Shown here: piece by piece, positions 16,201 through 56,611 of the stretch
Numbering within the stretch: the first letter of the stretch is position 1
How the letters are laid out: each line of letters starts with the position of its first letter
Notes under the pieces: model-generated
Told to the model about the DNA's origin: nothing
Seen by the model: the letters and a program-made list of their open reading frames with translations, nothing else
Databases searched by the model: none
Program-made: the position numbers and the translations under genes
Source: a virus
Reading direction: 5' to 3' (one strand)
Virus record (IMG/VR): IMGVR_UViG_3300045988_151163
Coordinates: 10,857 to 74,856 of that record
DNA length: 64,000 nucleotides

Positions 16201-17367
16201 CTTACTTGTCTCATTTACTGTTGGATCTTCGATAAACCAATAAACAGGCATTTTAGCATAAGAAGTCTCAAGTCCATTTAGAAATACCTTCAAATTGATT
16301 TTCTTTTCTTCAATAGAGGAAACATCTTGATTAGCAAAAAAAGGTCCATTCTCTGCTGTTAATACAACTTTATATCCGCCTTCAACTGTTTCAATATCTT
16401 CACAAACAGTTAATTGAATATCTTTTAATATAATATCAGCCCAAACATTTTTATCTGTTTTAGCTGGATCTTGCGGGAACCCATCAACAAAAGCAGTAAC
16501 TTTAATGCTTCTCTTTTTATCAAAAACAATTTCGTCTCCAAAATTAAGAACTAAATAATTAGTTTGATTAGACCAATTTGTTAATTCATATGGATTACCA
16601 TTAAAAACCTTAGAATCTAAATAAAATTCTTGAATGTCATCTTTTAAAATTCCATCTGCATTCTTTCTGCGGATTGGGATCTCAACCTTAATTCCATAAG
16701 AACCAGAAATCCTTTGTTCTTTTGCAATAGAGGTTTTAACATTCATATTTAATTTTAAGATATTATATCCACTATCAAAATATCCTTTTAATAAATCAGA
16801 CAAATCATATGGAACAATATCATTTATATCTATAGTTTCATCTTGATAAGATGCAAACTTAATTAAATTATAATTATTAAAAAGATTTTGACTTACTTCA
16901 ATTCTTTTTACTGTTTCTGCTGTTGTTTTATCTTCTCCAACCACTGTAACAGAAGGTGTTACAGAGTTTAAAATAACAAGAGGATTATCAAAATCTCCTC
17001 TTGGAACTAACACTAACACATGGTCACCAACTGAATAACTAGGCGTACTTGCATGCGCTTGCAATTTATCATTTTCTAAATATTTTACTCTATAGGTCGC
17101 GGTTCCTTGGTCCACTATCTCCATGACTTCCATCTCATAAGAAACATCACTTTGAACTGCGGATGCCGCGTTCTCTGACACTGAAGCTACAGCATCATAA
17201 ATTGAATTGGAGATATAGTCTGCTCCCTTATTCAATGAAGTATTGGAAGCTGCTTTAGTAAAATTCTCTTTTACTGTAGAATCAACTTGAAACTTAGTGT
17301 AGTCTGTTGCCAATACTCTTTCCTCCTTTTTCTCTTCTTTATTAGAATATGAAAAATTAAATCTCAT
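10264..17367 (-). CDS. giant tail protein (about 2368 aa): central coiled coil and four C-terminal about 65-aa repeats with G-x-I-(A/G)-(N/G)-W-T-(I/L) motif
   Basis: start placed at ATG 17365-17367 (MRFNFSY), 9 nt downstream of TATAAT of promoter 17377..17405; motifs GHIANWTLD, GHIANWTID, GTIGGWTIS, GQIGGWTIT. Confidence 0.55.
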   Translation of the reverse strand: MRFNFSYSNKEEKKEERVLATDYTKFQVDSTVKENFTKAASNTSLNKGADYISNSIYDAVASVSENAASAVQSDVSYEMEVMEIVDQGTATYRVKYLENDKLQAHASTPSYSVGDHVLVLVPRGDFDNPLVILNSVTPSVTVVGEDKTTAETVKRIEVSQNLFNNYNLIKFASYQDETIDINDIVPYDLSDLLKGYFDSGYNILKLNMNVKTSIAKEQRISGSYGIKVEIPIRRKNADGILKDDIQEFYLDSKVFNGNPYELTNWSNQTNYLVLNFGDEIVFDKKRSIKVTAFVDGFPQDPAKTDKNVWADIILKDIQLTVCEDIETVEGGYKVVLTAENGPFFANQDVSSIEEKKINLKVFLNGLETSYAKMPVYWFIEDPTVNETSKYYHRSAGVNWRCLNSRTEVLGEAQNDSSFVFNTTAGSVTISNQDIKHKSKIRCYVGTNEGQLWVYGELTISNLYSLIKEVNLYADKENNTYLENVGNVTLTCEVNYPNLYNNVVRDEELNYVWEQIDQQGRIISQDDFYSIIALNDKNITDGIYTTKISFPVSSLTSDMNIFKVYVYTNKKQASGSITAYPIETKQISIRTKEGQDFLVVLDNANVNYNYDADGDAPDSDNYDGLSLQKLEIKPVEFSIISAATGEEISKAEYDRVSWVWKVPINSLLKPNLVYFESINQDNTSAITKDDNYYYIRGNGANRSLQYKLASRYNAKSAQSLSSLTIIFGNTVLYEDVPIRFSKDGENGTNGTKYTAFVTYKIGDTEYRYGDIYVDDNGNEHPVKMRFVAVEDNDGTIDWYIYDLVSNTLKKCYSLSNNNYSHIKGDLYRLNVKVYKDGEEINTSASSQTGQANVSWNIFDSGEKQGLGWKENKYFCPFAISDSDASSCYIIPTNSDKNKLSQWTNENNVPYIIVQANISLSNLKATADQSTDDLNNIYNNDLHIYYDYPIEITRIKKPQTDFASDGSFKSFVPSLEGGFYNVLYTSAGNNPQYDDTENFRCESNLIGVDSKECNYSWSANSNIFLDKNMTIHEISVSEDNECPVAKPNPLFQSGDFYNYIKVKVDIENKILKDKLSKITSEKEELQKALDKNNSIYSNLELFLKACNLYQIEYLLKQSKEELQKRSECIDALQNIINAINNLDRDVSAQSNMSELTLSNGIKIGSSKSADTFIYNELNIINNIIISVLNTKTSVYGIGYNDGNDIESISSLFEDVFSRISTLYGNGIRTIIRKDINVLQSSIDAFNTFNQSIKNKTVTTNYSDFTAKLKNVVENENLAELAKQEEEYQKLLDTLGGYYVNITEYVSGNDVEKNYVDIWNIFVNFKQKLYSYGREIESDEILEQRGQLNQQYVLDLGKIEANKENIIISSEPIISYQNRTLSGKKYSEAKDIVQKRYEELTANENDNCSKEIAKIKANKDFTDEEKGKEIAVIRQHYAILTREKTLEKDNILKTLADDVKNTKIKSINSITEKYNTDLLKTYENSYLVPLQYLQEKYSTKTSELNTDIKNKNKEIADLNIGIESSQESVIIIRPINMKCNSYEIPGLNNWDGKKYYLSNNGEYMFCPQIGAGVKTNNNTFTGMFMGARTSVNRSMVSETENDLNLRNKDIGLFGYSQGIQSIFLDAKTGSAFMGMPGQGQIVISPNQAFASIYSGNYYKYDSKRKGYYSKKDGSFISEIDFNNLKTQEERDNYSSGQGMLINLTDGAIKSSYWNVNSEGKSTFTSGVIGGWEIGENTLSSVIKNNAQLVLDSGNSVGLTDANGPENRSPKIYSSDNTRKPHDTLDSMQPGFYLGSDGFSIGNTFKVSIQPSTGLRTQGTGILEVGNLSGAHWIIGQNLKGTSFIGHGASYLISKSFVNQSTDQSENNSSSVYIGTDGLSFGHNLELSAEGSLKIGSFKKNATTSDHFLVLEVDKKDISNASLRYNTDGIHDFKNNSLYVGTQGIRLGKESSKKNNRGVFEVESNGILWATAGHIANWTLDEYQLLSTNTVVIDGVTKPGLVLDSKKGYIAFIKEDFNKTGKGFYLGNEGLSLGDSFWVDRTGELLATKGHIANWTIDKDSIYVKSGDIKIFDIHPMTSGGYISYNTSGWNSSKLLDSTSGCFYLGTTGISLGPNPSPFRVNNLGELWSTRGTIGGWTISNSTLKGGSVTLNSNGSIIGSGWSFSTAGVLTCNDAIIGGVHFKTGSGEANWSGGQMTSGQIGGWTITTSSIYDTASGGGNIKFDTSGDFNILTDGESGIKGTGGDISMKGTTRVTASSGSNKMEITNTSGSLRVGSFGLSINASETSLSGSSKLRLSGGTELYLSSPKAIFNASGENIMIGSSTSLKNYIESVVNTVLKSKTIDFKTNTVYTGETEGHKHTYTKVVSATIS

Positions 17368-44671: not shown

Positions 44672-44700
44672 ATTATACCATACTATGTGTAGTTTGTCAA
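44672..44700 (-). promoter_or_regulatory. isolated minus-strand consensus promoter (antisense to upstream region)
   Basis: rc TTGACA-17-TGGTATAAT; no minus ORF downstream. Confidence 0.45.
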
Positions 44701-44825
44701 GCACTAATTTTTACATAATCATTGGTTAGGCGGGGCAAACACTTTAGTGCGTTAAAGCATTGAAGCGCGCAAGAAAATGATAAAAAGAAGTAAAGAAAAT
44801 GATAAAAATTTTTTTACAAAAACAC

Positions 44826-45141: not shown

Positions 45142-45264
45142 AAGTAAAAACAAGGCAAGGGCGCAAGCTCTTGCCTTTAATAGTGCTTAACGCTTTAGTG
45201 CGTTAAAGTGTTAAAGCACTAAAGTATTGTATTTAAAAGAGTACAATTTATTTATAAAAAAAGC

Positions 45265-45699: not shown

Positions 45700-45891
45700 A
45701 TGAATAAGACAACACTTGCATACTTCACAATCGAGGATAACTATTTTGTATTCACAAGAACAAACTATTTTGATGATAACACAAAGTCGATCGAGAGAGC
45801 AAAGGCTGAAAAGGAACTTGCAAGACTTCAGGCAATCAACAAGGACAGACATCTGAAGATTGTTACACGTTACGATTGCATCACAATGTAG
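45700..45891 (+). CDS. hypothetical protein (63 aa)
   Basis: promoter 45622..45650; terminator 45893..45918. Confidence 0.55.
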   Translation: MNKTTLAYFTIEDNYFVFTRTNYFDDNTKSIERAKAEKELARLQAINKDRHLKIVTRYDCITM

Positions 45892-45956
45892 GAAGAAGGC
45901 AAAAGCCTTCTTTTTTTGTTCGTTCTGAATCGAACAAATGGTCTGGTGTCCGAACT

Positions 45957-45986
45957 ATTATAGCACACTACTAGCCAACTTGTCAA
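45957..45986 (-). promoter_or_regulatory. isolated minus-strand consensus promoter (faces terminator of gene 45700)
   Basis: rc TTGACA-18-TGCTATAAT. Confidence 0.45.
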
Positions 45987-46084
45987 GAGGAAAAATGTAA
46001 AAAAATAAAAAAATATCTTTCCTAAAACAGGTAAAGGATTTAATAAAAAACGCAAGCAAATTGTATCAATCTATTGAATAAAGT

Positions 46085-46098
46085 AGTATTATAATACT
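46085..46098. repeat. perfect palindromic 14-mer AGTATTATAATACT with conserved about 80-bp flanks; copy A (others at 46727..46740 and 50836..50849)
   Basis: three copies sharing AAAAACGCAAG..TTGTATCAATC..AAAGTAGTATTATAATACTTGTAAGGAA. Confidence 0.6.
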
Positions 46099-46486: not shown

Positions 46487-46607
46487 AGAAGATATAAAAA
46501 TCTTCTCTTTTTTAATGGGCATAATACTTTAGCGCGTTAAAGCGTTACAGTTCACTGCACTAAAGCGACTTCCGCAACCATCGAACACCTGGTCTGCTGC
46601 CCGAAAA

Positions 46608-46637
46608 ATTATACCACAGGTGACCGCACTTTGTCAA
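46608..46637 (-). promoter_or_regulatory. isolated minus-strand consensus promoter; followed on plus side by TTGCACAA..TTGTGCAA terminator 46646..46693
   Basis: rc TTGACA-18-TGGTATAAT. Confidence 0.45.
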
Positions 46638-46794
46638 GAGAAAATTTGCACAAATTTACAAGTTTTTTCAATCCCGAAATTGTGCAATTTTTTTATAAAA
46701 AACTATTGACTTTTGTTACCTAAAGTAGTATTATAATACTTGTAAGGAACAGAAACAACACGATAGCTGAAAACAGAAACTTACAAAAAAGGTG

Positions 46795-46985: not shown

Positions 46986-46995
46986 TAAAAAGGGG

Positions 46996-47024
46996 TTGAC
47001 AAACCCCACAAGGTATGGTATAAT
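46996..47024 (+). promoter_or_regulatory. early promoter (gene 47062), -35 inside GGGGTT/AACCCC hairpin
   Basis: TTGACA-17-TGGTATAAT. Confidence 0.6.
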
Positions 47025-47838: not shown

Positions 47839-47907
47839 AGGGATAGTAGGCTAAATGGCAAACCGCTAATGCGCATAGAAACAAGAGTTCGATTCTCTTC
47901 TATCTCA
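47839..47907 (+). ncRNA. tRNA-like fragment (acceptor GGGATAG/CTATCTC + T arm AAGAG-TTCGATT-CTCTT, degenerate D/anticodon arms)
   Basis: canonical T-loop and 7-bp acceptor pairing but no foldable anticodon arm. Confidence 0.3.
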
Positions 47908-48465: not shown

Positions 48466-48600
48466 ATGGAAATTATAATTGCTTTTGGTTGCGGATGCGT
48501 GTTTATTATACCGCCATTGATCGCGGCAAGTGTCAGCGATGCAGTTCAGCGCAAGAAAAAACGCAACGAAATTTTGAAAAATTTTGGAATTAAGCCTTGA
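48466..48600 (+). CDS. 44-aa membrane peptide
   Basis: SD GGAAGAGGT; hydrophobic core. Confidence 0.4.
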   Translation: MEIIIAFGCGCVFIIPPLIAASVSDAVQRKKKRNEILKNFGIKP

Positions 48601-48625
48601 CAAATTAGTCAAGGCATGGTATAAT
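48597..48625 (+). promoter_or_regulatory. early promoter (gene 48658); -35 embedded in perfect palindrome GCCTTGAC-N6-GTCAAGGC
   Basis: TTGACA-17-TGGTATAAT. Confidence 0.6.
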
Positions 48626-48657: not shown

Positions 48658-48843
48658 ATGAAAGTTGCAAGAAAGATTACTGTTCCAAAAAAAGAATATG
48701 AGGTTCTCGATAAATTTCTTGATATGTGTAATGAAATAGGATTAGAAACTGATGAGCTTGTTGATTTGCTTAATGCAATTTCTAATAAAGATTCAGAATT
48801 TGACTGGGCAGGGATTACATATGATATTGAGTACTTAGCTTAG
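48658..48843 (+). CDS. hypothetical 61-aa protein
   Basis: promoter 48597..48625; terminator 48842..48867. Confidence 0.55.
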   Translation: MKVARKITVPKKEYEVLDKFLDMCNEIGLETDELVDLLNAISNKDSEFDWAGITYDIEYLA

Positions 48844-48879
48844 GGGCTATATAGCCCCTAATTTTTTTACAACAAAAGC

Positions 48880-48957
48880 TTGACATATCGCGGCAGTTGT
48901 GATATAATGGAATTTTGAGATGAAAATACCCTAGAAAAAATTTTTCATTTTTCTCTT
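48880..48957 (+). ncRNA. promoter (TTGACA-17-TATAAT) followed after about 10 nt by hairpin+T-run terminator: predicted about 45-nt non-coding transcript
   Basis: no ORF; TGAAAAT/ATTTTCA stem + TTTTTCTC. Confidence 0.4.
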
Positions 48958-49048
48958 GACAAATTAAATGAAATATGATATACTGGGCGGCCCGCGCACC
49001 ATCGCAGCGGGCCGAAATATTATACCACACATGACTCAGGTTTGTCAA
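48956..49048. repeat. convergent-promoter unit U2: plus promoter 48956..48984, GC hairpin 48985..49014, minus-strand promoter 49019..49048
   Basis: TTGACA-17-TATACT; GGGCGGCCCGCG..CGCAGCGGGCCG; rc TTGACA-18-TGGTATAAT. Confidence 0.6.
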
Positions 49049-49066
49049 GACTAATTTTCAAAAAAG

Positions 49067-49113
49067 TTATCCACAATTTACTATCCCGAAATTGTGGATA
49101 ACTTTGTGGATAA
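49067..49113. promoter_or_regulatory. three consensus DnaA boxes (TTATCCACA at 49067..49075; TGTGGATAA at 49094..49102 and 49105..49113), two forming a hairpin with TCCCGAA loop
   Basis: exact match to TTATNCACA consensus, 3 copies in 47 bp. Confidence 0.5.
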
Positions 49114-49119
49114 CTCCTA

Positions 49120-49148
49120 TTGACAAATAGGATTCTATGCGGTATAAT
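49120..49148 (+). promoter_or_regulatory. early promoter (gene 49183)
   Basis: TTGACA-17-TATAAT. Confidence 0.55.
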
Positions 49149-49182
49149 ACATACATAAGGTAAAGGAAGGGCGGTTGATAAT

Positions 49183-49326
49183 ATGATGGTATTTGAAGTT
49201 ATGGGGTACACGATAGTTGGATATGGGTATCGCTGGACAGTCACCCGCAATGGTGTACACGTTGGTACATATTCTGATACATGGGTAAATATCAGAAATG
49301 CAATTATTTTGAAAAAAATCAAATAA
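49183..49326 (+). CDS. hypothetical 47-aa protein
   Basis: promoter 49120..49148. Confidence 0.4.
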   Translation: MMVFEVMGYTIVGYGYRWTVTRNGVHVGTYSDTWVNIRNAIILKKIK

Positions 49327-49330
49327 GGGG

Positions 49331-49359
49331 TTGACAAATACCCCTAAACATGGTATAAT
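49331..49359 (+). promoter_or_regulatory. early promoter (gene 49394)
   Basis: TTGACA-17-TGGTATAAT. Confidence 0.6.
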
Positions 49360-49393
49360 CATTATAGAAAATAAAGAAAGGAAGTTGTTAGAT

Positions 49394-49624
49394 ATGACAT
49401 TTTTAGGTTTTTGTGGAATTGGTGGAGCATGTGTTATTGCTTTCTCTTGTGGATGGTTCTTTTTGATGGTAGCATATGCTATTTTTGCTGAGTGTGCAGG
49501 ACTTCCGATGCCTTTTGATGAAGATTATTTGATTTGTAAAATCAATCTGTATTTTTGGCTGGGTACTATGTGTTTAGGTATCATTCTTTGGCTTATTGTT
49601 GCTATTGCTAGTCTTTTTAATTAA
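49394..49624 (+). CDS. small membrane protein (76 aa)
   Basis: promoter 49331..49359; SD AAAGGAAG. Confidence 0.55.
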   Translation: MTFLGFCGIGGACVIAFSCGWFFLMVAYAIFAECAGLPMPFDEDYLICKINLYFWLGTMCLGIILWLIVAIASLFN

Positions 49625-49628
49625 AGTA

Positions 49629-49657
49629 TTGACAAATATCTTTAAATATGATATAAT
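49629..49657 (+). promoter_or_regulatory. early promoter (gene 49690)
   Basis: TTGACA-17-TATAAT. Confidence 0.6.
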
Positions 49658-49689
49658 AAATATAGAAAATGAAAGAGAGGTAAGAGATT

Positions 49690-49854
49690 ATGGAAAAAGG
49701 TGGAATTAGTTTTAGTGGTTTATTGTTTATTACTCTTTTGGTTTTGAAGTTGGTAAAAGTAATTTCAATATCATGGGTTTGGGTTTTTGCTCCTTTGTGG
49801 ATTCCATTGGGCATCACACTCATTTGTATTATTATTGGAATATTTATTCATTAG
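49690..49854 (+). CDS. 54-aa membrane peptide
   Basis: promoter 49629..49657; SD AAGAGAGGT. Confidence 0.5.
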   Translation: MEKGGISFSGLLFITLLVLKLVKVISISWVWVFAPLWIPLGITLICIIIGIFIH

Positions 49855-49871
49855 AAAGAGGGGTAATAGTT

Positions 49872-50105
49872 ATGAGAGAAGTTATTTATAAGGTAACAAA
49901 GCCAGGACGTGTAGGTTTTGCAAAACGCAAAACCCTCGAACATGCACAGAGAACTGCACAGAATATCCACGGAGAATACAAGGCGATTCTTGTAGACCCC
50001 GAAATTGCAACAAAGACTTTGATTGCAAGTTCGCCTATGCGTCAGCGTATGATTGCACAGTTTGGAAGAGTGCACCCTAGTTTGAAAAATAGGGTTGACA
50101 AGTAG
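49872..50105 (+). CDS. hypothetical basic protein (77 aa)
   Basis: SD AGAGGGGT 8 nt upstream. Confidence 0.5.
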   Translation: MREVIYKVTKPGRVGFAKRKTLEHAQRTAQNIHGEYKAILVDPEIATKTLIASSPMRQRMIAQFGRVHPSLKNRVDK

Positions 50106-50123
50106 TCAACCCTATGGTATAAT
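50095..50123 (+). promoter_or_regulatory. early promoter (gene 50149); -35 in palindrome GGGTTGAC-N5-GTCAACCC
   Basis: TTGACA-17-TGGTATAAT. Confidence 0.6.
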
Positions 50124-50148
50124 AGATATAGAAAGTGAGGTAAACAAA

Positions 50149-50457
50149 ATGAAAATTTATATTATTCATGAAGATAATGATGGTGTTATTGGAGTAGCAG
50201 ATAGTTATGAAAGTGCAGTTCAATTTCTTATTGATAAAGAGTGGATAACAGAAGATTTTGAAATTTGGAATAGAGAAAACAATTACAGCCGTCCTCTTTA
50301 TACTTTTGAAATCAAGCCAGAAGACATTAAAGCATGGAATATTAGCAAGTTTAATGATTTCTTTGATGGAGATTTTGAGATTGAAGAGGCTAATCTCATA
50401 ACAGATGCACGTAATAAAATTGAGGAGGTGCTTGCCAACGATGGGTTGGAGTCATGA
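50149..50457 (+). CDS. hypothetical acidic protein (102 aa)
   Basis: promoter 50095..50123. Confidence 0.55.
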   Translation: MKIYIIHEDNDGVIGVADSYESAVQFLIDKEWITEDFEIWNRENNYSRPLYTFEIKPEDIKAWNISKFNDFFDGDFEIEEANLITDARNKIEEVLANDGLES

Positions 50458-50608
50458 TTATACTTTTGATTATCTTAAAGAGCAGGCTAACCAAAAATCA
50501 AAAGATGCAACATGTGACAAGATTCTTAGCCACATCAATAGAAATCCTTGCATAACAGTAGCCGAGTTGAGAAAATTTATCATTGACTTAAAAAATAATG
50601 GTTTTTAA
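50441..50608 (+). CDS. hypothetical 55-aa protein
   Basis: GAGGAGG SD 10 nt upstream; bidirectional terminator 50591..50622. Confidence 0.5.
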   Translation: MGWSHDYTFDYLKEQANQKSKDATCDKILSHINRNPCITVAELRKFIIDLKNNGF

Positions 50609-50622
50609 CCATTATTTTTTTT
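50591..50622. terminator. bidirectional intrinsic terminator (AATAATGGTT/AACCATTATT with A-run and T-run)
   Basis: perfect 10-bp stem flanked by A6 and T8. Confidence 0.6.
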
Positions 50623-50632
50623 GAAATTAAAC

Positions 50633-50724
50633 TTGACAAAGTTCCTTTGATATGATATAATGGCGGCGCGCTTGCGGTTGGGGCGCGCCGCAATATTATA
50701 CCACATGTACCCGCAGTTTGTCAA
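50633..50724. repeat. convergent-promoter unit U3: plus promoter 50633..50661, GC hairpin 50662..50691, minus promoter 50695..50724; terminator 50743..50779
   Basis: TTGACA-17-TATAAT; GGCGGCGCGC..GCGCGCCGC; rc TTGACA-18-TGGTATAAT. Confidence 0.6.
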
Positions 50725-50911
50725 GACTAATTTTTGAAAAAATTGCACAAAAATTTTTCTCCCGAATTGTGCAATTTTTACGAAAAGAATCTGATAAAAA
50801 ACGCAAGAATTTTGTATCAATCCATGCTTAAAAGTAGTATTATAATACTTGTAAGGAAGAGATAACAACATGATAGTTGAAAACAAACTTCCTAAAGAAA
50901 ATAAAAAAATG

Positions 50912-50940
50912 CTTGACAAAGCAAACTAAATGTGCTATAA
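50912..50940 (+). promoter_or_regulatory. promoter followed by about 95 nt non-coding leader, then promoter 51041..51069 for the exonuclease gene
   Basis: TTGACA-17-TATAAT twice in tandem. Confidence 0.5.
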
Positions 50941-51101
50941 TAAATACATACAAGGGAGCTGATAAAGCTTGAAACAAAACCCTGTCGAGTGCGTAAGGAA
51001 GTCAAGGTACAGTAAAGGTTGAAAAAATTTGAAAAAGGTCTTGACAAACTCCCTTGAATATGTTATACTTAGTACATAAGGTAAAGGAAAGAGGTAAAAA
51101 A

Positions 51102-51800
51102 ATGGAAAAAAAGATTGATAGAAGAATTAAGTACAGAGCAGTTGTTGATACAGAAACTTGCCCTGTTGACAAAGACTTGAAAGATGTAATTCCTAGTAAT
51201 ATGTGGACGTATGATTTTGGTTTCGCAATCGTAGATAAGAATGGCAACGTATATGAAGCATATAGCTTTGTCAATGCGGATATCTTTATCGGAGAGCGTG
51301 AGTTGATGAAGTCTGCCTATTATGCCAACAAGATTCCGCAGTATTGGGAAGATATCAAAGCAGGCAAGCGCACACTTGCAACATTTTACAATATTAGAAA
51401 GAAATTCTTTGAAGTGTGCGAAGAATACGGAGTAGAAGAAGTTTACGCCCACAATATGCGATTCGATCATGGAACATTGAATACAACAGAAAGATGGTTG
51501 ACAAAATCAAAATACCGCTATTTTTTCCCATCACAATATATTATTTGTGATACTTTGAAGATGGCAAGGGATGTTATTCTAAAAATGTCAACATACAAAA
51601 GATTTTGTGCTGAAAATGGCTATGTTACAAAGAATGGGCAGCCAAGAGCAACCGCTGAAATTCTTTACAGATTCATCAAAAAAGATAATGATTTTATAGA
51701 AAGCCACACCGCACTTGAAGATGTGCTAATCGAGAAAGAGATTCTTGCCTATTGTTTCAAGCAACATAAAAAAATGCGTCGGCTCTTGTGGGAAAATTAA
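51102..51800 (+). CDS. DEDDh-family 3'-5' exonuclease (DnaQ/RNase T-like)
   Basis: Exo I VVDTETCP, Exo II YAHNMRFDHG, Exo III HTALEDV; promoter 51041..51069. Confidence 0.7.
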   Translation: MEKKIDRRIKYRAVVDTETCPVDKDLKDVIPSNMWTYDFGFAIVDKNGNVYEAYSFVNADIFIGERELMKSAYYANKIPQYWEDIKAGKRTLATFYNIRKKFFEVCEEYGVEEVYAHNMRFDHGTLNTTERWLTKSKYRYFFPSQYIICDTLKMARDVILKMSTYKRFCAENGYVTKNGQPRATAEILYRFIKKDNDFIESHTALEDVLIEKEILAYCFKQHKKMRRLLWEN

Positions 51801-51809
51801 AATTCCCAC

Positions 51810-51838
51810 TTGACAAACCGCCTAAAGTGTGGTAATAT
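51810..51838 (+). promoter_or_regulatory. early promoter (gene 51870)
   Basis: TTGACA-17-TAATAT. Confidence 0.5.
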
Positions 51839-51869
51839 ATAATAGAAGAAAGAAAGGAGAAGAAAAGGT

Positions 51870-52193
51870 ATGAAAACAAGAGCGCAGTTGATAGAAGAAA
51901 TCATGGCTGAGTTTGAAAAAGACGGCGAACCAGTAAGCGAAGAAGAAGCTGGTAAAATTGCTGATTTAGAAATCAAAGCCAAGGAAAACAATGTTAAACA
52001 CTATGAGCGTAGCATAAAGCCACGAGACAAGCCAACAAAAGAGAGAAAAATAGACGTAGAAAAATTAAAAATTTTAGAACAAATCCAAGCTACCCTTGAG
52101 GAATACGGATTTACAGTGAAAAGGGAGCGAGAGGTTGCGCTACATTTTGGAAACTATGAGTTGAAACTCATTAGACATAAAAAAAGTAGTTGA
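51870..52193 (+). CDS. hypothetical K/E-rich protein (107 aa)
   Basis: promoter 51810..51838; SD AAAGGAG. Confidence 0.55.
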   Translation: MKTRAQLIEEIMAEFEKDGEPVSEEEAGKIADLEIKAKENNVKHYERSIKPRDKPTKERKIDVEKLKILEQIQATLEEYGFTVKREREVALHFGNYELKLIRHKKSS

Positions 52194-52218
52194 CAAACAA
52201 TAAAAAATGTGATATAAT
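52190..52218 (+). promoter_or_regulatory. promoter with only an 8-codon ORF downstream; tandem with 52281..52309
   Basis: TTGACA-17-TATAAT. Confidence 0.45.
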
Positions 52219-52280
52219 AATTATAGAAAGTGAGGGAAGGAAAAATGAGAAGTCCGCCGAAAAGAAAATAAAAAAAATAG

Positions 52281-52309
52281 TTGACAAAATAAAAAAAGTA
52301 TGATATAAT
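52281..52309 (+). promoter_or_regulatory. early promoter (gene 52345)
   Basis: TTGACA-17-TATAAT. Confidence 0.6.
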
Positions 52310-52344
52310 AAATATATAATAAAGAAAGAAAGAGGTAGATAGTT

Positions 52345-52716
52345 ATGGAAAAGAAGATTACACAGAAGGAAATGTTCAATGAGGTTATCGCACTTGCTAC
52401 TGCAAACGGTAGAGAGGACATTGTGAAGTTTGCCGAGGAAAGAATCGCGGCACTCGATAAGAAGTCCGCAAACCGTAAGCCATCGAAGAATCAGACTGCA
52501 AACGAGGAAATCAAGGCTAAAATCCTGGAGTTCCTTGAGGGTTCGGACGGAAATACTTGTACCGAAATCAAAGATGGTCTTTCCGGTGACTACTCACTCA
52601 ATAAGATTGTAGCACTGATGACGCAGTTGTCAGGCGGTGCAAAGCCAAAGGATGGTGTTGAGTATCCAGTGGTTAGATTTGCTGAGGGTAAGGTGGTTAA
52701 GTTCCGCCTTGCCTAA
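52345..52716 (+). CDS. hypothetical protein (123 aa), paralog of the 55380 gene; winged-helix-like
   Basis: shares ANRKPSKNQTANEEIKAKIL...CTEI...YSLNKIVALMTQL with 55380..55778; high GC; promoter 52281..52309. Confidence 0.55.
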   Translation: MEKKITQKEMFNEVIALATANGREDIVKFAEERIAALDKKSANRKPSKNQTANEEIKAKILEFLEGSDGNTCTEIKDGLSGDYSLNKIVALMTQLSGGAKPKDGVEYPVVRFAEGKVVKFRLA

Positions 52717-52741
52717 GCAGTAAAAAATTTCATAAAGGGGC

Positions 52742-52770
52742 TTGACAAACAAGCCCCTATATGATAAAAT
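52742..52770 (+). promoter_or_regulatory. promoter of the two-tRNA unit; -35 in hairpin GGGGCTTG/CAAGCCCC
   Basis: TTGACA-17-TAAAAT, tRNA 5' end 13 nt downstream. Confidence 0.55.
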
Positions 52771-52783
52771 ATAATTAAGACAT

Positions 52784-52921
52784 GGGGATGTAGCTCAGTG
52801 GTAGAGCGGTGGCTCGTTAAGCCACGTCACATTGATGATACCCCTCTAAAAGCACTTTTGACTTAATCAACCAAGGGTGGGCGTTAGAGACGGGGCGAGA
52901 GTTCGATTCTCTCCATTCCCA
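52784..52921 (+). tRNA. aberrant tRNA-like gene: canonical acceptor, D, anticodon (loop UCGUUAA, GUU=Asn, C at position 33) and T arms, but a 71-nt insertion at the variable-loop position (52826..52896)
   Basis: GGGGATG/CATTCCC acceptor pairing, D arm GCTCAGTGGTAGAGC, anticodon stem GTGGC/GCCAC, T arm GAGAG-TTCGATT-CTCTC; driven by promoter 52742..52770. Confidence 0.45.
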
Positions 52922-52930
52922 ATTAAAAAT

Positions 52931-53002
52931 AGGCGTGTGGCTCAATGGAAAAGCAACGGTCTCCAAAACCGCGATTTACAGGTTCAAATCCTGTCGCGCC
53001 TG
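52931..53002 (+). tRNA. tRNA-Trp (CCA)
   Basis: acceptor AGGCGTG/CGCGCCT, anticodon arm CGGT-CTCCAAA-ACCG, T arm ACAGG-TTCAAAT-CCTGT; GGTCTCCAAAACC is typical of tRNA-Trp. Confidence 0.75.
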
Positions 53003-53036
53003 CTAATACAGTAAAAGATTGTTACCTCCTTTCCTT

Positions 53037-53066
53037 GGGTGCGAGAAATCGCACCCTATTTTTTTG
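53037..53066 (+). terminator. intrinsic terminator after tRNA-Trp (GGGTGCGA/TCGCACCC + T7)
   Basis: hairpin + T-run. Confidence 0.65.
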
Positions 53067-53075
53067 AAAAAGTGC

Positions 53076-53170
53076 TTGACAAAAATTGATTTTTGTGTTA
53101 TAATGGGCGGCGCGCCATAGGTCGCGGCGCGCCGAACTTCCAGTATACCATAATCCCGGCTTTTTGTCAA
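53076..53170. repeat. convergent-promoter unit U4: plus promoter 53076..53104, GC hairpin 53105..53134, minus promoter 53142..53170
   Basis: TTGACA-17-TATAAT; GGGCGGCGCGCC..GCGGCGCGCCG; rc TTGACA-17-TATACT. Confidence 0.6.
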
Positions 53171-53215
53171 GGGTTTTTTGAAAAATTTTTTTTATTTTTT
53201 TTATCCCAAAATGCT

Positions 53216-53244
53216 TGACAAATTAAAATCTATCCTGTATAATA
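53216..53244 (+). promoter_or_regulatory. early promoter (gene 53277)
   Basis: TTGACA-17-TATAAT. Confidence 0.6.
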
Positions 53245-53276
53245 AGTATGTAAGGTAAAGGAAAGGGGTAATAAGT

Positions 53277-53690
53277 ATGAAGCATGTATTTGATAGAAGA
53301 ACTTATATTAAGTTTAATGGTTGGGAATGTTTTAAAGATACATCTATTTTTAAAGATTTGCAGTTTTTACCAGAAGAAAAAGCAACTGAAAAGTTATTCT
53401 ATATTAGAGATTTTAAAGAGTTGGTAACAAAAGTACAGAATGGGGTAATCTGTAATGCAGAAATGGACGAAACATTTTTTAAACATCGTCCAAAGGTGGT
53501 ACTTCATACTGCGGATTTGTTTAATAATTATTTTTCTATCACAGAAAAAAATTTTGCACCATTAGAAATCAAAATTGAGTATATAGAAGATAAAAACACT
53601 TCATTAAAAACTCTTTCAGGAATGCTTCCTGCTGATGATTTTGTGGAGTATCTAAAAGATAGAGAAATTTCTTTAGAAAAATTTTTATAA
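53277..53690 (+). CDS. hypothetical protein (137 aa)
   Basis: promoter 53216..53244. Confidence 0.55.
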   Translation: MKHVFDRRTYIKFNGWECFKDTSIFKDLQFLPEEKATEKLFYIRDFKELVTKVQNGVICNAEMDETFFKHRPKVVLHTADLFNNYFSITEKNFAPLEIKIEYIEDKNTSLKTLSGMLPADDFVEYLKDREISLEKFL

Positions 53691-53695
53691 AACTA

Positions 53696-53757
53696 TTGAC
53701 AAATAATATTAAACATGATATAATAAAGAAAAGATAAGGAAAGAGGTAAAAAATATG
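53696..53757 (+). repeat. about 60-bp promoter+leader+RBS block, near-identical direct repeat of 53912..53975
   Basis: TTGACAAATAATATTAAACATGATATAATAAAGAAAAGATAAGGAAAGAGGTAAAAAA in both. Confidence 0.6.
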
Positions 53758-53895
53758 ACAGTTAAAGATTTAATTAGAATATTAGAACAGTATCCATCAG
53801 ATACAGAAGTTTCTGTCTATTATGACGGCGGTGTCGCGGATAACGCCCATGAACCTGAGATAGATTATGATAATTCTAATATTATAATATGGTAA
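53755..53895 (+). CDS. hypothetical 46-aa protein
   Basis: promoter 53696..53724 (duplicate of 53912 block). Confidence 0.4.
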   Translation: MTVKDLIRILEQYPSDTEVSVYYDGGVADNAHEPEIDYDNSNIIIW

Positions 53896-53911
53896 TAAAA
53901 TAAAAAAATAC

Positions 53912-53975
53912 TTGACAAATAATATTAAACATGATATAATAAAGAAAAGATAAGGAAAGAGGTAAAAAAGATATG
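53912..53975 (+). repeat. second copy of the promoter+leader block (drives the HAD phosphatase gene)
   Basis: see 53696..53757. Confidence 0.6.
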
Positions 53976-54431
53976 AAAACATTAGTATTTGACATGGATG
54001 GAACAATCGCAAATTTCTACGGAGTAGAGGGCTGGCTTAAGGATTTACACAACGAGAATCCGCGCCCTTACATTATGGCTGAACCACTTTGGGATATGGC
54101 TTTGCTTGGTTCTCTTCTCTGTTGTTTGAAGAGCGTTGGTTACAGAATCGTTGTCACATCTTGGTTGTCTAAGGATTCTACAAAAGACTTTGACGAAGTT
54201 GTGAGAACTGCAAAAAGAGATTGGCTTACTAGATATAACTTCCCTTTTGATGAAATCCACCTTGTGAAGTATGGCACAACAAAAGCAAACTGTACACGCA
54301 AGCATGGTGGCAATCAGATTCTTTTTGATGATAACGCAAAGGTTCGCAAGGGTTGGAGCTTGGGAGAAACAATCGACCCGACCGCAGAAAATATTATTGA
54401 CTTTTTAGCTGATTTACTCTTGACAGAGTAG
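53973..54431 (+). CDS. HAD-superfamily phosphatase, 5'(3')-deoxyribonucleotidase-like (152 aa)
   Basis: motif I FDMDGT, motif II VVTSW, motif III KRDW, motif IV LFDDN. Confidence 0.65.
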   Translation: MKTLVFDMDGTIANFYGVEGWLKDLHNENPRPYIMAEPLWDMALLGSLLCCLKSVGYRIVVTSWLSKDSTKDFDEVVRTAKRDWLTRYNFPFDEIHLVKYGTTKANCTRKHGGNQILFDDNAKVRKGWSLGETIDPTAENIIDFLADLLLTE

Positions 54432-54448
54432 GTCAGCGGTGGTATAAT
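54420..54448 (+). promoter_or_regulatory. early promoter (gene 54475)
   Basis: TTGACA-17-TGGTATAAT. Confidence 0.55.
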
Positions 54449-54474
54449 AGGTATAGAAAGTGAGGTAGATAAGA

Positions 54475-54666
54475 ATGGTAATAGGAATGAAGAAATCTTT
54501 TTTCCCAACCTATAAGCAAGCTATTGAGTATGTATCAGTAATTTGTTCTCAAAGAATGGGTAATATAAAAGTTGGGTGTAAAAGAGATAAAACACTAAAA
54601 AAACCTTGGTTTGTTGAGTATACCGCTTGGTCAGAAGATTTTATTAAAAGAGAGGGATTGAAATAA
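54475..54666 (+). CDS. hypothetical 63-aa protein
   Basis: promoter 54420..54448. Confidence 0.5.
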   Translation: MVIGMKKSFFPTYKQAIEYVSVICSQRMGNIKVGCKRDKTLKKPWFVEYTAWSEDFIKREGLK

Positions 54667-54677
54667 TGAAAAAACAC

Positions 54678-54706
54678 TTGACAAATATTTATGGTTATGC
54701 TATAAT
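54678..54706 (+). promoter_or_regulatory. early promoter (gene 54739)
   Basis: TTGACA-17-TATAAT. Confidence 0.6.
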
Positions 54707-54738
54707 TATTATAGAAAATGAAAGAGAGGTAAAATAAA

Positions 54739-54915
54739 ATGGCAAAAATTAAAGAAGTAATTGAGATAACAAAAGAAGAAAAAGAAATTCTTGAAAAAGC
54801 AGATGATATTTTAACTTCAATAACATTGGCATTAGGAGAAAAGCATCTTAATGATTTTAATTATCCAAGCATACTTGATCGAATGTCAATTACTTTTAAT
54901 GCATTAACAAAATAG
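54739..54915 (+). CDS. hypothetical 58-aa acidic protein
   Basis: promoter 54678..54706; terminator 54913..54935. Confidence 0.45.
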   Translation: MAKIKEVIEITKEEKEILEKADDILTSITLALGEKHLNDFNYPSILDRMSITFNALTK

Positions 54916-54946
54916 GCAAAATGCCTATTTTTTTTACTTAAAACTC

Positions 54947-55038
54947 TTGACAAACAATAGAAAGTATGCTATAATGGCGCGGCGTGCACGCTCCTCGCAC
55001 GCCGAGATATTATACCACATAGCTCTGGCATTTGTCAA
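54947..55038. repeat. convergent-promoter unit U5: plus promoter 54947..54975, GC hairpin 54976..55006, minus promoter 55009..55038; terminator 55047..55093
   Basis: TTGACA-17-TATAAT; GGCGCGGCGTGC..GCACGCCGAG; rc TTGACA-18-TGGTATAAT. Confidence 0.6.
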
Positions 55039-55099
55039 TAGGAAAATTGCACAAATTTTTTAACCTTGTGCATCCCGAATTTTGTGCATTTTTCCGATA

Positions 55100-55330
55100 T
55101 TGATTTTCTATAAATATTTTGTTATAATGTATTTACAAGGTAAGGAAAGAAAACAAAATAGCAACCTCGGTCGTGAGGAAAACAAATTTTGAAACTTTCA
55201 AAAACCTATTGACAAACATTAAAAAATATGTTATAATAAGCATGTAAGGTCAAGGAAGATTAAAGGTTCTAAACCGAAAAGAAAATAATAAAAAAAAATG
55301 CTTGACAAACCTTACAAAATATGTTATAAT
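55100..55330 (+). promoter_or_regulatory. three tandem promoters (55100..55128 TTGATT-17-TATAAT; 55209..55237; 55302..55330) separated by about 70-100 nt non-coding spacers, upstream of gene 55380
   Basis: each with 17-nt spacing and TRTG extended -10. Confidence 0.5.
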
Positions 55331-55379: not shown

Positions 55380-55778
55380 ATGACAACAACAAACAAGACA
55401 ACAAAGAAGCAGTACTTTGAAATGATTATGGCTATTGAGGGCGTGTCCGAGGATATTAAGGACTTCTGTGCAAGAGAGATTGCAACCCTTGAGAAGAAGA
55501 ACGCCAACCGTAAGCCGTCTAAGAATCAGACCGCAAACGAGGAAATCAAGGCGAAGATTCTTGATGTACTTGAGGACTCTAAGCCTATGACCTGTACAGA
55601 GATTATGACCGCCTTTAATGGCGAGTATTCACTCAATAAGATTGTAGCACTGATGACTCAGCTTGCTGGTCCAGCAAAGGATGAAAACAGAGATGCTACT
55701 AAGGTATATCTTGTTCGCCGTATTCCAGATGGTAAGAAGATGACTTTCGCCCTTAATACCGAGGGTATCGAGGGTTAG
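55380..55778 (+). CDS. hypothetical protein (132 aa), paralog of 52345..52716
   Basis: shared core motif; three tandem promoters upstream (55100, 55209, 55302). Confidence 0.55.
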   Translation: MTTTNKTTKKQYFEMIMAIEGVSEDIKDFCAREIATLEKKNANRKPSKNQTANEEIKAKILDVLEDSKPMTCTEIMTAFNGEYSLNKIVALMTQLAGPAKDENRDATKVYLVRRIPDGKKMTFALNTEGIEG

Positions 55779-56341: not shown

Positions 56342-56401
56342 TTGACAAAGCACATAAAATGTGGTATAATGTCGCGGCGTTGACCACCGGGCAACGCCGA
56401 G
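56342..56401 (+). repeat. half unit U6: plus promoter 56342..56370 + GC hairpin 56371..56401, no partner minus promoter
   Basis: TTGACA-17-TGGTATAAT; GTCGCGGCGTTG..CAACGCCGAG. Confidence 0.5.
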
Positions 56402-56611
56402 TTCCCACGACCAGACCCTATATGGCTTTTTTTCCTGGTTGTTTGAAATCTGAAAACCGCCATACGGTTCCCGAAATTAGATGTTTGACTTACTTTTGTT
56501 GTGAATTTGCTCGTTTTCTATCTGAAACGTAAAAATATCCGTCAGAATAAAAAATGGCTTACTGTATCGAATTACAGTGATTCTATTGATAAATGCCTCA
56601 GCGCATCTCTC

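Follow-up and report, generated by a model that had tools for sequence, protein, structure and literature searches.

Lambda OOP RNA and P22 sar RNA are short transcripts (~70-100 nt) that arise from a constitutive promoter converging on the 3' end of the upstream gene and end at a terminator; each occurs once and overlaps a specific target gene in its coding or ribosome-binding sequence. Coliphages 186 (pR/pL) and P2 (Pe/Pc) set strong promoters face to face, with competition and occlusion coupling their activities, in switches that occur once per genome, control lytic versus lysogenic operons and contain repressor operators. The classes of transcriptional interference were summarised by Brophy and Voigt (2016, PMC4731013), who described a terminator followed by an antisense promoter as a working synthetic regulatory part, the strength of the antisense promoter being its key parameter. 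In E. coli and B. subtilis, antisense initiation is enriched beside intrinsic terminators (Harden et al. 2020, PMC6978322). T4-type phages carry another composite motif, the promoter-early stem-loop or PeSL, in which a stem-loop, a sense promoter, a Shine-Dalgarno sequence and a gene follow one another in that order (PMC2839356, PMC4122927).

Here we analysed a 64-kb window of a virus record from IMG/VR. The window belongs to a large siphovirus-like phage, for which a low-GC Gram-positive host is the best explanation. Its 2-kb windows have 28-37% GC; late genes lie on the minus strand and the early region on the plus strand, where ~35-40 consensus promoters are found within 12 kb. Orphan promoters are common there, and those at 48880, 50913, 55100 and 55209 have no ORF to drive. 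The preliminary description placed four face-to-face promoter pairs around GC hairpins in this region. An exact search of the window for TTGACA-17-TATAMT-N30-40-AKTATA-17/18-TGTCAA found all four where they had been placed, at 48956-49048 (U2), 50633-50724 (U3), 53076-53170 (U4) and 54947-55038 (U5), with 0 matches in 100 dinucleotide-preserving shuffles. All eight unit promoters carry the TG of an extended -10. The forward promoters of U3 (50633..50661), U4 (53076..53104) and U5 (54947..54975), on the plus strand, match the consensus at 12/12 positions, and that of U2 (48956..48984; TTGACA-17-TG-TATACT) at 11/12, the stem beginning 3 nt past the end of its -10. On the minus strand, the antisense promoters of U2 (49019..49048), U3 (50695..50724) and U5 (55009..55038) are TTGACA-18-TATAAT (12/12), and that of U4 (53142..53170) is TTGACA-17-TG-TATACT (11/12) with a 7-nt leader, GGAAGTT. 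Unit comparison agreed with the description that promoter spacers and hairpin sequences vary from copy to copy. As to the claimed lack of ORFs and ribosome-binding sites, small ORFs do overlap the units, none of them with a ribosome-binding site.

Between the opposing -10 boxes, the four units have 33-37 nt of 76-79% GC, and each contains a perfectly paired stem of 8-9 bp that encloses a loop of 9-11 nt. The hairpins are 25-29 nt long, slightly shorter than the 29-31 nt first given for them: U2, 48988..49014 (CGGCCCGC, an 11-nt loop, GCGGGCCG); U3, 50663..50691 (GCGGCGCGC, an 11-nt loop, GCGCGCCGC); U4, 53108..53134 (CGGCGCGCC / ATAGGTCGC / GGCGCGCCG); and U5, 54980..55004 (CGGCGTGC / ACGCTCCTC / GCACGCCG). 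The U4 loop is a member of a conserved GCGACCCAT (minus-sense) family, and in the relative L001 the U5 stem is CGGCGAGC/GCTCGCCG, a compensatory change. Folding indicates that both predicted RNAs are able to begin with the hairpin, as had been proposed, with little or no 5' overhang; their folds combine this 5' hairpin with a terminator hairpin at the 3' end (z-scores, -2.1 to -5.2).

A bidirectional terminator had been reported upstream of each unit. It is clear for U3 (50590..50623), where it ends the preceding operon and is the predicted 3' end of the antisense RNA, and for U5 (54909..54937); U2 and U4 have plus-sense terminators only, that of U4 (53037..53064, plus strand) lying 3' of tRNA genes. 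No good antisense terminator was found beyond the U2 and U4 antisense promoters, so these antisense RNAs could be long; a long U4 antisense RNA would be antisense to two tRNA genes. On the other side of the units, U3 is followed by an inverted repeat, TTGCACAA-N16-TTGTGCAA (50743..50774), with TCCCGAA adjoining its right arm, and U5 by TTGCACAA-N11-TTGTGCA-TCCCGAA-TTTTGTGCA (55047..55088) and then a weaker rightward promoter at 55100-55128. Such an element had been assigned to every unit except U2; U4 lacks it and has only ATCCCAAAA. Its proposed role as a terminator is probably also too simple. Across relatives, the arms of TTGCACAA..TCCCGAA..TTGTGCAA are separated by 16 or 26 nt, and 9 or 19 nt lie between a repeat arm and the minus promoter's -35. 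These 10-bp steps are more in keeping with a protein-binding site that the next rightward promoter shares, and suggest that the TTGCACAA element is an operator in a divergent promoter region. In this sense, the U3 inverted repeat is probably an operator common to the antisense promoter and the next rightward promoter, and may also be a weak plus-sense terminator. In place of the repeat element U2 has, as noted previously, DnaA boxes: three perfect copies (49067..49113; TTATCCACA at 49067, TGTGGATAA at 49093 and 49105) form an inverted repeat around TCCCGAA, between the antisense promoter and a forward promoter at 49120. The window has no other strict DnaA boxes; these three are kept in the relatives L001 and L002 and are absent at the equivalent site of other relatives, this version being limited to U2 of its clade.

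The count of four full copies holds, and the family is wider. Units with an antisense promoter only lie at 46608..46687 (promoter 46637-46608, with TTGCACAA at 46646-46653 and TTGTGCAA at 46680-46687 upstream), where there is no GC hairpin and the predicted transcript begins TTCGGGCAGCAGACCAGG, and at 45957..45986, directly after a terminator at 45890-45915. The leftmost antisense consensus promoter of the early region, also minus-only, is at 44672..44700. A fifth GC-hairpin unit (56342..56399, plus strand) has a forward consensus promoter, then the hairpin CGGCGTTG/9 nt/CAACGCCG (56375-56399), and no opposing promoter.

The arrangement had been considered unlike any described phage element; its exact form is distinct, and related composite motifs are known. 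Like PeSLs (PMC4122927), the units are repeated, non-coding promoter/stem-loop composites with near-consensus sigma-70 promoters, sited between small ORFs of plastic early regions and present at indel/replacement junctions of close relatives, and degraded copies exist in both systems. However, the hairpin of the phage units lies downstream of the -10, at the start site, their conserved promoter is antisense and drives no gene, and host and phage group are unrelated. As in the terminator/antisense-promoter modules (PMC4731013, PMC6978322), an opposite-strand promoter tens of bases past the sense terminator fires back into that terminator, and bidirectional terminators (U3, U5) would keep the antisense RNA short. 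Natural antisense promoters of that kind tend to be weak and little conserved; here, the promoter is conserved and of full consensus, its predicted start coincides exactly with a dedicated GC hairpin whose pairing is perfect, the units are coupled to a phased repeat and a divergent promoter, and this lineage adds an opposing promoter ~21-25 nt away, start site to start site. The predicted unit RNAs resemble OOP and sar in that they are short, run into the 3' end of the gene upstream and stop at a terminator, but they recur 5-10 times per genome, those of U3 and U5 overlap only the terminator, and the sole trait that the unit RNAs share is the 5' hairpin architecture. With the 186 and P2 switches the units have in common two strong convergent promoters whose start sites are only tens of bases apart; unlike them, they occur in several copies, encode nothing and have a GC hairpin at their centre.

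The best explanation is that the units are composite regulatory cassettes at the boundaries between early operons. We assign a probability of about 40% to their being terminator-plus-antisense-promoter insulator cassettes, related to the T4 PeSLs and to the synthetic parts, and the published precedents (PMC4731013, PMC6978322) count in favour of this reading. The core is a perfectly paired GC hairpin, usually just past the terminator of the preceding operon, overlapped on the opposite strand by a sigma-A promoter of maximal strength (consensus -35, TG-extended consensus -10, GG discriminator) whose predicted start site is the hairpin base. A polymerase bound at this promoter, or firing from it, would occupy the DNA of the hairpin as far as the U-tract of the terminator upstream. 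Any sense polymerase escaping termination there would run head-on into another polymerase and encounter a second strong hairpin that leads into an A/U-rich stretch, and would stop, so that the TTGCACAA/TTGTGCAA operator-like region and the regulated rightward promoter behind it would be shielded. In U3 and U5 the antisense transcript would be a short RNA (~100 nt), complementary to the upstream mRNA's 3' end and stabilised by a hairpin at its 5' end and the terminator hairpin at its 3' end. The lineage of the window also has a second consensus promoter joined to the hairpin's opposite flank, where 1-4 nt separate the -10 box and the stem; the opposing predicted start sites are only ~21-25 nt apart, so the two polymerases would have to compete, and forward transcripts would likewise begin with an overhang-free hairpin and then read towards the next operon. 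The roadblock that we infer is not assured, since a polymerase sitting at a promoter is normally displaced by one that is elongating.

Comparison with >60 IMG/VR phage loci provides further evidence for the insulator cassette. Promoter-hairpin units recur in related phages with their stems and reverse promoters conserved. A covariance model of "-10 box + leader + hairpin" (E<=0.01), applied to the window, 61 related phage loci and Enterococcus phage H1 (62 loci besides the window), gave 118 matches, 114 of them on the minus strand, opposite the early genes. The symmetric promoter pair originally proposed as the conserved unit was not borne out: the core is asymmetric, a minus-strand promoter with a hairpin at its predicted start site and a leader of 7-9 nt (GGAAATTTC), the -10-to-stem distance being tight. 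The forward promoter, whose leader is 2-4 nt across relatives, is missing from most related units and is an add-on of some lineages, with its -10 box abutting the hairpin; the convergent form with the same asymmetry was found in 60 non-redundant IMG/VR units. Selection on the antisense promoters is strong: of 81 non-redundant examples, 71 match at 12/12 and 80 carry TG. The stem is selected as a structure, because 8/8 pairs changed on both sides in the alignment of relatives and 95% of its cells are paired, versus 65% in shuffles and 22-54% with the partner slid. Thus, as the preliminary description held, promoter function and a paired GC hairpin are conserved without a copied block, and promoter spacers vary freely. 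No G.U and no A.C pairs occur in the true stems of 68 non-redundant hairpins, against 2.4% and 0.7%, respectively, in ordinary plus-sense terminators of the same loci (n=804), consistent with a need for pairing in both senses. In 38/54 antisense-only units, an upstream terminator has its T-run <=22 nt from the hairpin, and in 22 non-redundant variants the same type of hairpin is directly followed by TTTTTGTCAA, making a canonical plus-sense terminator. The helical phasing of the flanking repeat, with a rightward promoter at its mirror position, also favours the insulator. Against it, the window's own units have no U-tract after the hairpin in either sense, the antisense RNAs of U2 and U4 could be long, and many same-type GC hairpins have no recognisable antisense promoter, which is therefore not indispensable. 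Neither the DnaA boxes at one unit nor the conservation of loops is explained by an insulator role: the loops fall into families kept across distant relatives (minus sense GCGACCCAT, GAGGAACGT, CGACCAT and CAACCGCA) on differing, covarying stems.

Such loop families would be expected if the hairpin-capped transcript itself were functional, as a trans-acting or protein-binding small RNA whose GC-clamped conserved loop pairs with a target or binds, sponges or decoys a host or phage protein; promoter strength and the overhang-free hairpin would then serve abundance and stability. Consensus-strength promoters, a hairpin that begins at the predicted +1 and the predicted two-hairpin fold agree with this. 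We nevertheless consider it unlikely: the 64-kb window has no loop-complementary target except the hairpins themselves, the remainder of the RNA is merely the reverse complement of whichever terminator is upstream, so it has no conserved single-stranded seed, and the units match no Rfam family. An RNA made from one strand should also tolerate G.U pairs, which are absent, and loop orientation relative to the promoter is apparently flipped in some units. Perfect Watson-Crick stems fit a hairpin at the DNA level, as in replication-origin or primosome-loading sites, where strong transcription into a GC-rich palindrome would either activate an origin close by or form an R-loop that persists while its displaced strand folds into a hairpin, with DnaA and a putative TTGTGCAA-binding initiator bound alongside. 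The DnaA boxes adjoining U2, flanking arms phased in the manner of protein-binding sites, and the minus-strand promoter and GC hairpin within an 800-bp non-coding, iteron-like region of Enterococcus phage H1 speak for origins. This is rather improbable, as 5-10 units per early region are many for origins, DnaA boxes are confined to a single unit of a single clade and the TTGCACAA arms generally misfit even a relaxed DnaA-box consensus; moreover, an R-loop requires GC-richness, not a palindrome, and converging polymerases have positive supercoiling ahead of them, a condition unfavourable to cruciform extrusion.

The promoters themselves could be the functional part, as a sink in which maximal binding and slow escape, due to consensus elements and a GC-rich initial transcribed region, soak up host RNA polymerase with sigma-A, aiding host shut-off and keeping polymerase on phage DNA, with the short transcripts as by-products. 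A GG discriminator, which stabilises open complexes (sigma region 1.2), is added in the unit promoters, and ~40 perfect promoters, several of them the orphans listed above, lie in the 12-kb early region; recapture of polymerase near terminators is also possible (PMC6978322). A sink is quite improbable, needing no fixed strand, no 7-9 nt hairpin distance, no paired stem and no conserved loop, all four strongly selected. We give least credence to the units being mainly recombination scaffolds, PeSL-like repeats that persist by mediating the shuffling of early gene cassettes, the convergent pairs being scars of lost cassettes. Synteny with L001 and L002 is interrupted at promoters and ribosome-binding sites, one junction with L002 falling inside the U5 forward promoter, orphan promoters abound, and degraded forms keep a -35 box as the sole remnant beside the hairpin, similar to degraded PeSLs (PMC4122927). 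Scars, however, would not fix leaders at 2-4 nt versus 7-9 nt in 60 independent units or maintain 12/12 promoters, and compensatory stem evolution is not expected of them.

The earlier interpretation of the units is partly supported. The units are genuine: an uncultivated phage of the gut or rumen carries them in its early-gene region as conserved regulatory cassettes. Judging from their sequences, these cassettes most likely insulate neighbouring early operons and yield short hairpin-capped RNAs.

Profile and ORF searches identify the source of the window as a tailed phage. Its 2886-aa tape-measure protein, portal and large terminase subunit are encoded on the minus strand, from position 1 to ~42 kb, and the genes from ~42.5 to 57 kb lie on the plus strand, a switch also visible in the GC skew. 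With its small ORFs, tRNA genes and ~35 perfect TTGACA-17-TGnTATAAT promoters, the plus-strand stretch looks like an early region dependent on host RNA polymerase. No nucleotide-level match to the window was found among cultured or deposited phages. The nearest named relatives by protein are the gut phage phAss-1 and the ~140-kb Enterococcus phages H1, EF1 and VRE9, and IMG/VR holds a 122 kb contig 99% identical to the window together with dozens of relatives of 60-195 kb. The promoter type, like these relatives, suggests that the host is a low-GC Gram-positive bacterium. Neither an integrase nor a repressor module was observed in the window. Adjoining the early region and its tRNA genes, the ORF at 43251-44129 matches a Thg1-type tRNA-His guanylyltransferase (Pfam PF04446, E=3e-29). 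The tRNA gene at 52784-52921 (Rfam, 55 bits, 71/71 model positions) carries an insertion of ~66 nt in its variable region and an anticodon loop, UCGUUAA, that gives the anticodon GUU with a C at position 33, and in the tRNA-like gene at 47840-47907 (40 bits) the anticodon arm is shortened; ARAGORN called neither of them.

The preliminary description had reported four units in this region, each with two opposing promoters around a GC-rich hairpin. A search for two consensus promoters face-to-face across 30-40 nt recovered all four where they had been placed (U2, 48956-49048; U3, 50633-50724; U4, 53076-53170; U5, 54947-55038) and gave 0 matches in 100 shuffles. All eight promoters match 11-12 of the 12 hexamer positions and have the TG extension. 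The 33-37 nt between the -10 boxes are 76-79% GC, against ~28-37% GC in the window, and in each unit they form a perfect stem of 8-9 bp with a loop of 9-11 nt. The hairpins are therefore GC-rich and base-paired as described, but they measure 25-29 nt instead of 29-31 nt. They lie downstream of both -10 boxes, at the predicted start sites. The absence of coding content also held, as neither a ribosome-binding site nor an ORF follows the unit promoters, and the antisense promoter, oriented opposite to the genes, drives no ORF. Predicted starts fall ~7 nt past each -10 box, so the two transcripts would overlap by only ~21-25 nt, from which we infer that the two polymerase footprints at a convergent pair must exclude each other.

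Upstream of every unit stands an intrinsic terminator of the sense operon, at 48840-48861 (U2), 50590-50623 (U3), 53037-53056 (U4) and 54909-54931 (U5). All of these had been taken as bidirectional, which is clearly so at U3 and U5 but not at U2 and U4. The hairpins of the four units are followed directly by AAAT/ATTATA in the plus sense and by CCATTATA in the minus sense, with no U-tract in either. Further promoters of the same type, with a minus-strand promoter alone, occur at 44700, 45986 and 46637, and a promoter-hairpin unit with a forward promoter lies at 56342-56399 on the plus strand. A motif AGTTC(G/C)(G/C)NCANNNCCAGACC was observed after three promoters (45940-45956 and 46582-46600, minus sense; 56400-56420, plus sense); it replaces the GC hairpin in two cases and comes after it in one, and the orientation of the 56400 copy is opposite to that of the remaining two.

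To follow these elements in other genomes, 61 loci were fetched around homologues of the 232-aa protein encoded at 51102-51800. In the two closest IMG/VR relatives (L001 and L002) each of the four units is present at the orthologous site, with compensatory stem changes such as CGGCGTGC/GCACGCCG to CGGCGAGC/GCTCGCCG. In distant relatives the two-promoter architecture survives only in part: the antisense promoter and hairpin recur, but the forward promoter is usually missing. The recurring set opens with a minus-strand promoter and a leader near GGAAATTTC; the GC hairpin follows, then a short tail, CGCC, and finally an A-run, which is the complement of the T-run in the terminator of the upstream operon; this T-run lies <=22 nt from the hairpin in 38 of 54 related antisense-only units. 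A covariance model trained on 12 units and searched against the window and 62 loci (the 61 above plus Enterococcus phage H1) gave 118 hits at E<=0.01, 114 of them antisense to the early genes. All 8 modelled pairs vary on both sides, and paired cells make up 95% of the alignment versus 65% when shuffled and 22-54% with the partner slid, margins that are large even for an alignment fitted to the covariance model, which favours structure. Among non-redundant antisense promoters (n=81), 71 match 12/12 and 80 have the TG. The -10 box is 7-9 nt from the stem base in 72/90 minus-strand units, and therefore the hairpin begins at their predicted +1; in plus-strand units the distance is 2-4 nt (39/46), which places the predicted start a few bases inside the stem.

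The convergent form found in the window, with at least four copies per genome, belongs to this wider family. A forward promoter is also present in 11/65 non-redundant antisense units of the first locus set, and at least 118 stretches in IMG/VR show the convergent pattern, about half of those listed with the same kind of GC-rich hairpin. Pooled convergent units (non-redundant, n>=60) combine an 8-9 bp stem and a 9- or 11-nt loop with leaders of unequal length, 2-4 nt on one side and 7-9 nt on the opposite side. Since these units all show the identical asymmetry, the convergent arrangement is a recurrent, selected subtype and no accident of this genome. Other variants were also found: in 22 non-redundant cases TTTTTGTCAA directly follows the hairpin, giving a canonical plus-sense terminator in which only the -35 of the antisense promoter is retained, and in other copies a single TTGACA closely precedes the hairpin on its plus side. 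An unrelated family of AT-rich face-to-face consensus promoters separated by TGAAATGAAGTTTATGAAGTTCTG was seen on smaller contigs at >=7 IMG/VR loci (L099, L135, L137, L160, L172, L183 and L200); these pairs may constitute a lysis/lysogeny switch.

Enterococcus phage H1 (L062) has overall the same early-region layout, including two minus-strand promoters each followed by a GC hairpin. These two units were found by eye, and the covariance model did not reach them at E<=0.01. One of them sits in the middle of an 800-bp non-coding, iteron-like stretch (17800-18560 in L062). This stretch contains ~12 AAAATAACA/TGTTATTTT repeats and three Rex-box-like TTGTGAA-N4-TTCACAA palindromes, and is plausibly the replication origin of H1.

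The stems are unusually strict in their pairing. No G.U or A.C pair occurs in the true stems of 68 non-redundant hairpins, the few that were counted being spurious extensions into loops. Ordinary plus-sense terminators of the same loci have 2.4% G.U and 0.7% A.C, and even in terminators with an A-run as well as a T-run at their flanks G.U is 1.6%. Because G.U is absent here and present in terminators, pairing must be required on both strands or at the DNA level, or else the hairpins must be maximally stable; the G.U versus A.C comparison itself picks no RNA strand, as neither occurs, and the absence is informative against the terminators. Loop families persist on quite different stems, GCGACCCAT (minus sense) on at least five of them, a sign of sequence-specific selection on the loops.

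The repeat TTGCACAA..TCCCGAA..TTGTGCAA beside the antisense promoter had been assigned, with its T-run, to a terminator downstream of the units. It is absent at U4, and where it occurs its arms are spaced as for a DNA-bound protein: across relatives the distance between them is 16 nt in 15 cases and 26 nt in 20, and the antisense -35 is separated from the nearest arm by 9 nt in 33 cases and by 19 nt in 20. Such steps of one helical turn are needed by a DNA-bound protein and not by an RNA hairpin. In the next rightward promoter the -35 is often weaker, and the other arm, after ATCCYRAAA, falls ~9-11 nt upstream of this box. Given this phasing and the position of the second arm, the cassette reads as a divergent promoter region too, with a putative shared operator-like element. 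U2 has three perfect DnaA boxes in place of the arms, and the 64 kb contain no other strict ones. The boxes that the preliminary description noted there are thus present, and kept in L001 and L002, but the equivalent site in other relatives has none. The arms themselves were considered as degenerate DnaA boxes and rejected, as relaxed-consensus matches are few and do not track them. Together, the phased TTGCACAA/TTGTGCAA element and its substitution at U2 point to a putative regulator of delayed-early genes. Two early ORFs, of 123 aa (52345-52716) and 132 aa (55380-55778), are paralogous (74% identity over 125 nt, 52444-52568 and 55479-55603), and the 123-aa product has a weak helix-turn-helix match; these paralogues are candidate regulators for the element.

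Several other features were observed around the promoters of this region. Rightward promoters past the units at 46056-46095, 46706-46745 and 50814-50855 share the block AAAGTAGTATTATAATACTTGTAAGGAA; their -10 region is palindromic (AGTATTATAATACT) and their -35 weak, which suggests a separately regulated class. Clusters of CTTTAGTGCGTTAAAG / GCACTAAAG motifs in both orientations (44738-44773, 45188-45228 and 46522-46560) adjoin the leftmost antisense promoters; they are iteron-like and could be sites for a replication or regulatory protein. In many forward early promoters the -35 is embedded in a GC-clamped hairpin after an A-run, e.g. AAAAAGGGGTTGACAAACCCC (window, 46990-47007, 48594-48615, 49325-49345, 50090-50112 and 52735-52757; H1, 11790-11830 and 16255-16290). 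On the minus strand each of them reads as an intrinsic terminator, a hairpin plus T-run, and so the sense promoters appear to double as stops for antisense transcription. Perfect promoters followed by no ORF, or by 8-19 codons only, lie at 48880-48955, 50913-51040, 52190-52280 and 55100-55300 and still have a normal-looking leader and a Shine-Dalgarno-like sequence. They look like orphans left by cassette loss or sources of short non-coding transcripts; the leader GTATTTACAAGGTAAGGAAAG past 55128 is conserved in a further relative (L003).

We found, then, a hairpin that pairs in both senses, with a maximal-strength antisense promoter whose predicted start is at its base, in a unit placed directly after sense terminators and before an operator-like element and the next promoter. 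Our preferred explanation, to which we give a probability of about 0.4, is that the units are terminator-coupled antisense-promoter cassettes with an insulating function. Polymerase at or leaving the antisense promoter would extend to the U-tract of the upstream terminator and, aided by the GC hairpin and the A/U-rich stretch downstream of it, would halt sense read-through, leaving the next promoter under the control of its own regulator only. The antisense product would be a short RNA capped at both ends by hairpins, and the U3 and U5 antisense RNAs have predicted folds with both. The forward promoter, where present, would compete with the antisense one and provide the transcripts downstream with an overhang-free 5' hairpin. 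Promoter-bound polymerases are usually displaced by elongating ones, and this is a weak point of the proposal; another is that it leaves the conserved loops and the DnaA boxes unexplained.

A loop-specific RNA function, which we consider unlikely, is favoured by the loop families kept across differing stems; against it, complementary targets for the loops were not found in the window, and with Rfam 15 only tRNAs reach threshold, no hit overlapping the hairpins even at E<=1. It is rather unlikely that the cassettes form a new class of regulatory element, acting either as a host-state sensor or as recognition sites. As a sensor, two mutually exclusive sigma-A promoters would share one GC palindrome, the forward one with a GC-rich discriminator and a G start inside the stem and the antisense one with an A/T-rich leader and an A start. 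Firmicutes promoters that start with G and have a GC-rich discriminator, such as Bacillus subtilis rRNA promoters, depend on GTP level and supercoiling. Depending on host nucleotide pools, the pair would direct polymerase either forward into the early operon that follows or backward against the one before. In the recognition-site alternative, the perfectly paired hairpins with their conserved loops would be bound, as DNA or RNA, by a phage protein. A role as origin or primosome sites would suit the DnaA boxes, but these are confined to U2 and shared by L001 and L002, not by the other relatives, and we regard this role as improbable. A polymerase sink, quite improbable in our view, would fit promoters that drive no ORF. 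Recombination scaffolds are highly improbable. Synteny with L001 and L002 is interrupted at promoters and ribosome-binding sites, once inside the U5 forward promoter, as scaffolds would predict, but the covariation of the stems across relatives speaks against them.

The insulating cassette that we favour resembles several known systems without coinciding with any. The promoter-early stem-loop (PeSL) motifs of T4-type phages combine a promoter consensus with synteny-break behaviour (PMC4122927). The window units likewise have near-consensus sigma-70-type promoters (11-12/12, TG) and lie at indel/replacement junctions between close relatives, but in PeSLs the stem-loop is upstream of a same-sense promoter followed by a Shine-Dalgarno and a gene, whereas here the hairpin is downstream and the promoter antisense. 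Modules of a terminator plus an antisense promoter are similar in having the intrinsic terminator of the sense operon directly upstream and an opposite-strand promoter firing back towards it. Unlike intrinsic bidirectional terminators, the window hairpins have no U-tract, which only the 22 variant copies in relatives show. The face-to-face lysis/lysogeny switches of the 186/P2 type are single-copy, with coding operons and repressor operators, whereas the window units are multi-copy and their antisense promoter drives no ORF. An RNA anti-CRISPR or solitary mimic of a CRISPR repeat, which would need a constant sequence like the host's repeat, was also considered; the stems vary from unit to unit, with covariation among relatives, and there are several loop families, a diversity that argues, as far as sequence can tell, against imitation of one repeat. 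N4-type hairpin promoters combine a 5-7 bp stem with a 3-nt loop and go with a gene for a giant virion RNA polymerase. We rejected this possibility, as the loops here have 9-11 nt and profile searches of both giant ORFs found no polymerase, the 2886-aa product being the tape-measure protein and the 2384-aa one matching no family. Type I toxin-antitoxin was likewise rejected, the upstream ORFs not being small hydrophobic peptides. The phAss-1 paper does not mention promoters, hairpins or repeats, and our literature search did not find convergent promoters with a hairpin in phage early genes. The components and general logic are known (PeSLs, terminator/antisense-promoter parts, OOP-like antisense RNAs, face-to-face promoters); what is not described is their conserved combination, in which a consensus antisense promoter has its predicted start at a GC hairpin with perfect pairing and is joined by a phased operator and, optionally, by an opposing promoter.

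Antisense promoters that occur naturally close to terminators tend to be written off as noise. Here the 12/12 promoters, their fixed distance to a covarying hairpin and the more than 100 copies imply strong purifying selection on such a promoter, which would make it a useful natural model, with possible uses in the study of transcriptional interference, of RNA polymerase recapture after termination and of RNA stabilisation by 5' hairpins in Gram-positive hosts. As the parts are small (~90 bp), modular and diverse in sequence, they may also be attractive as synthetic-biology insulators. Furthermore, if the cassettes work as proposed, an entire family of abundant uncultivated gut and rumen phages of 100-200 kb would partition its early region by means of a compact, maintained insulator, which would be a host promoter pointed the "wrong" way.
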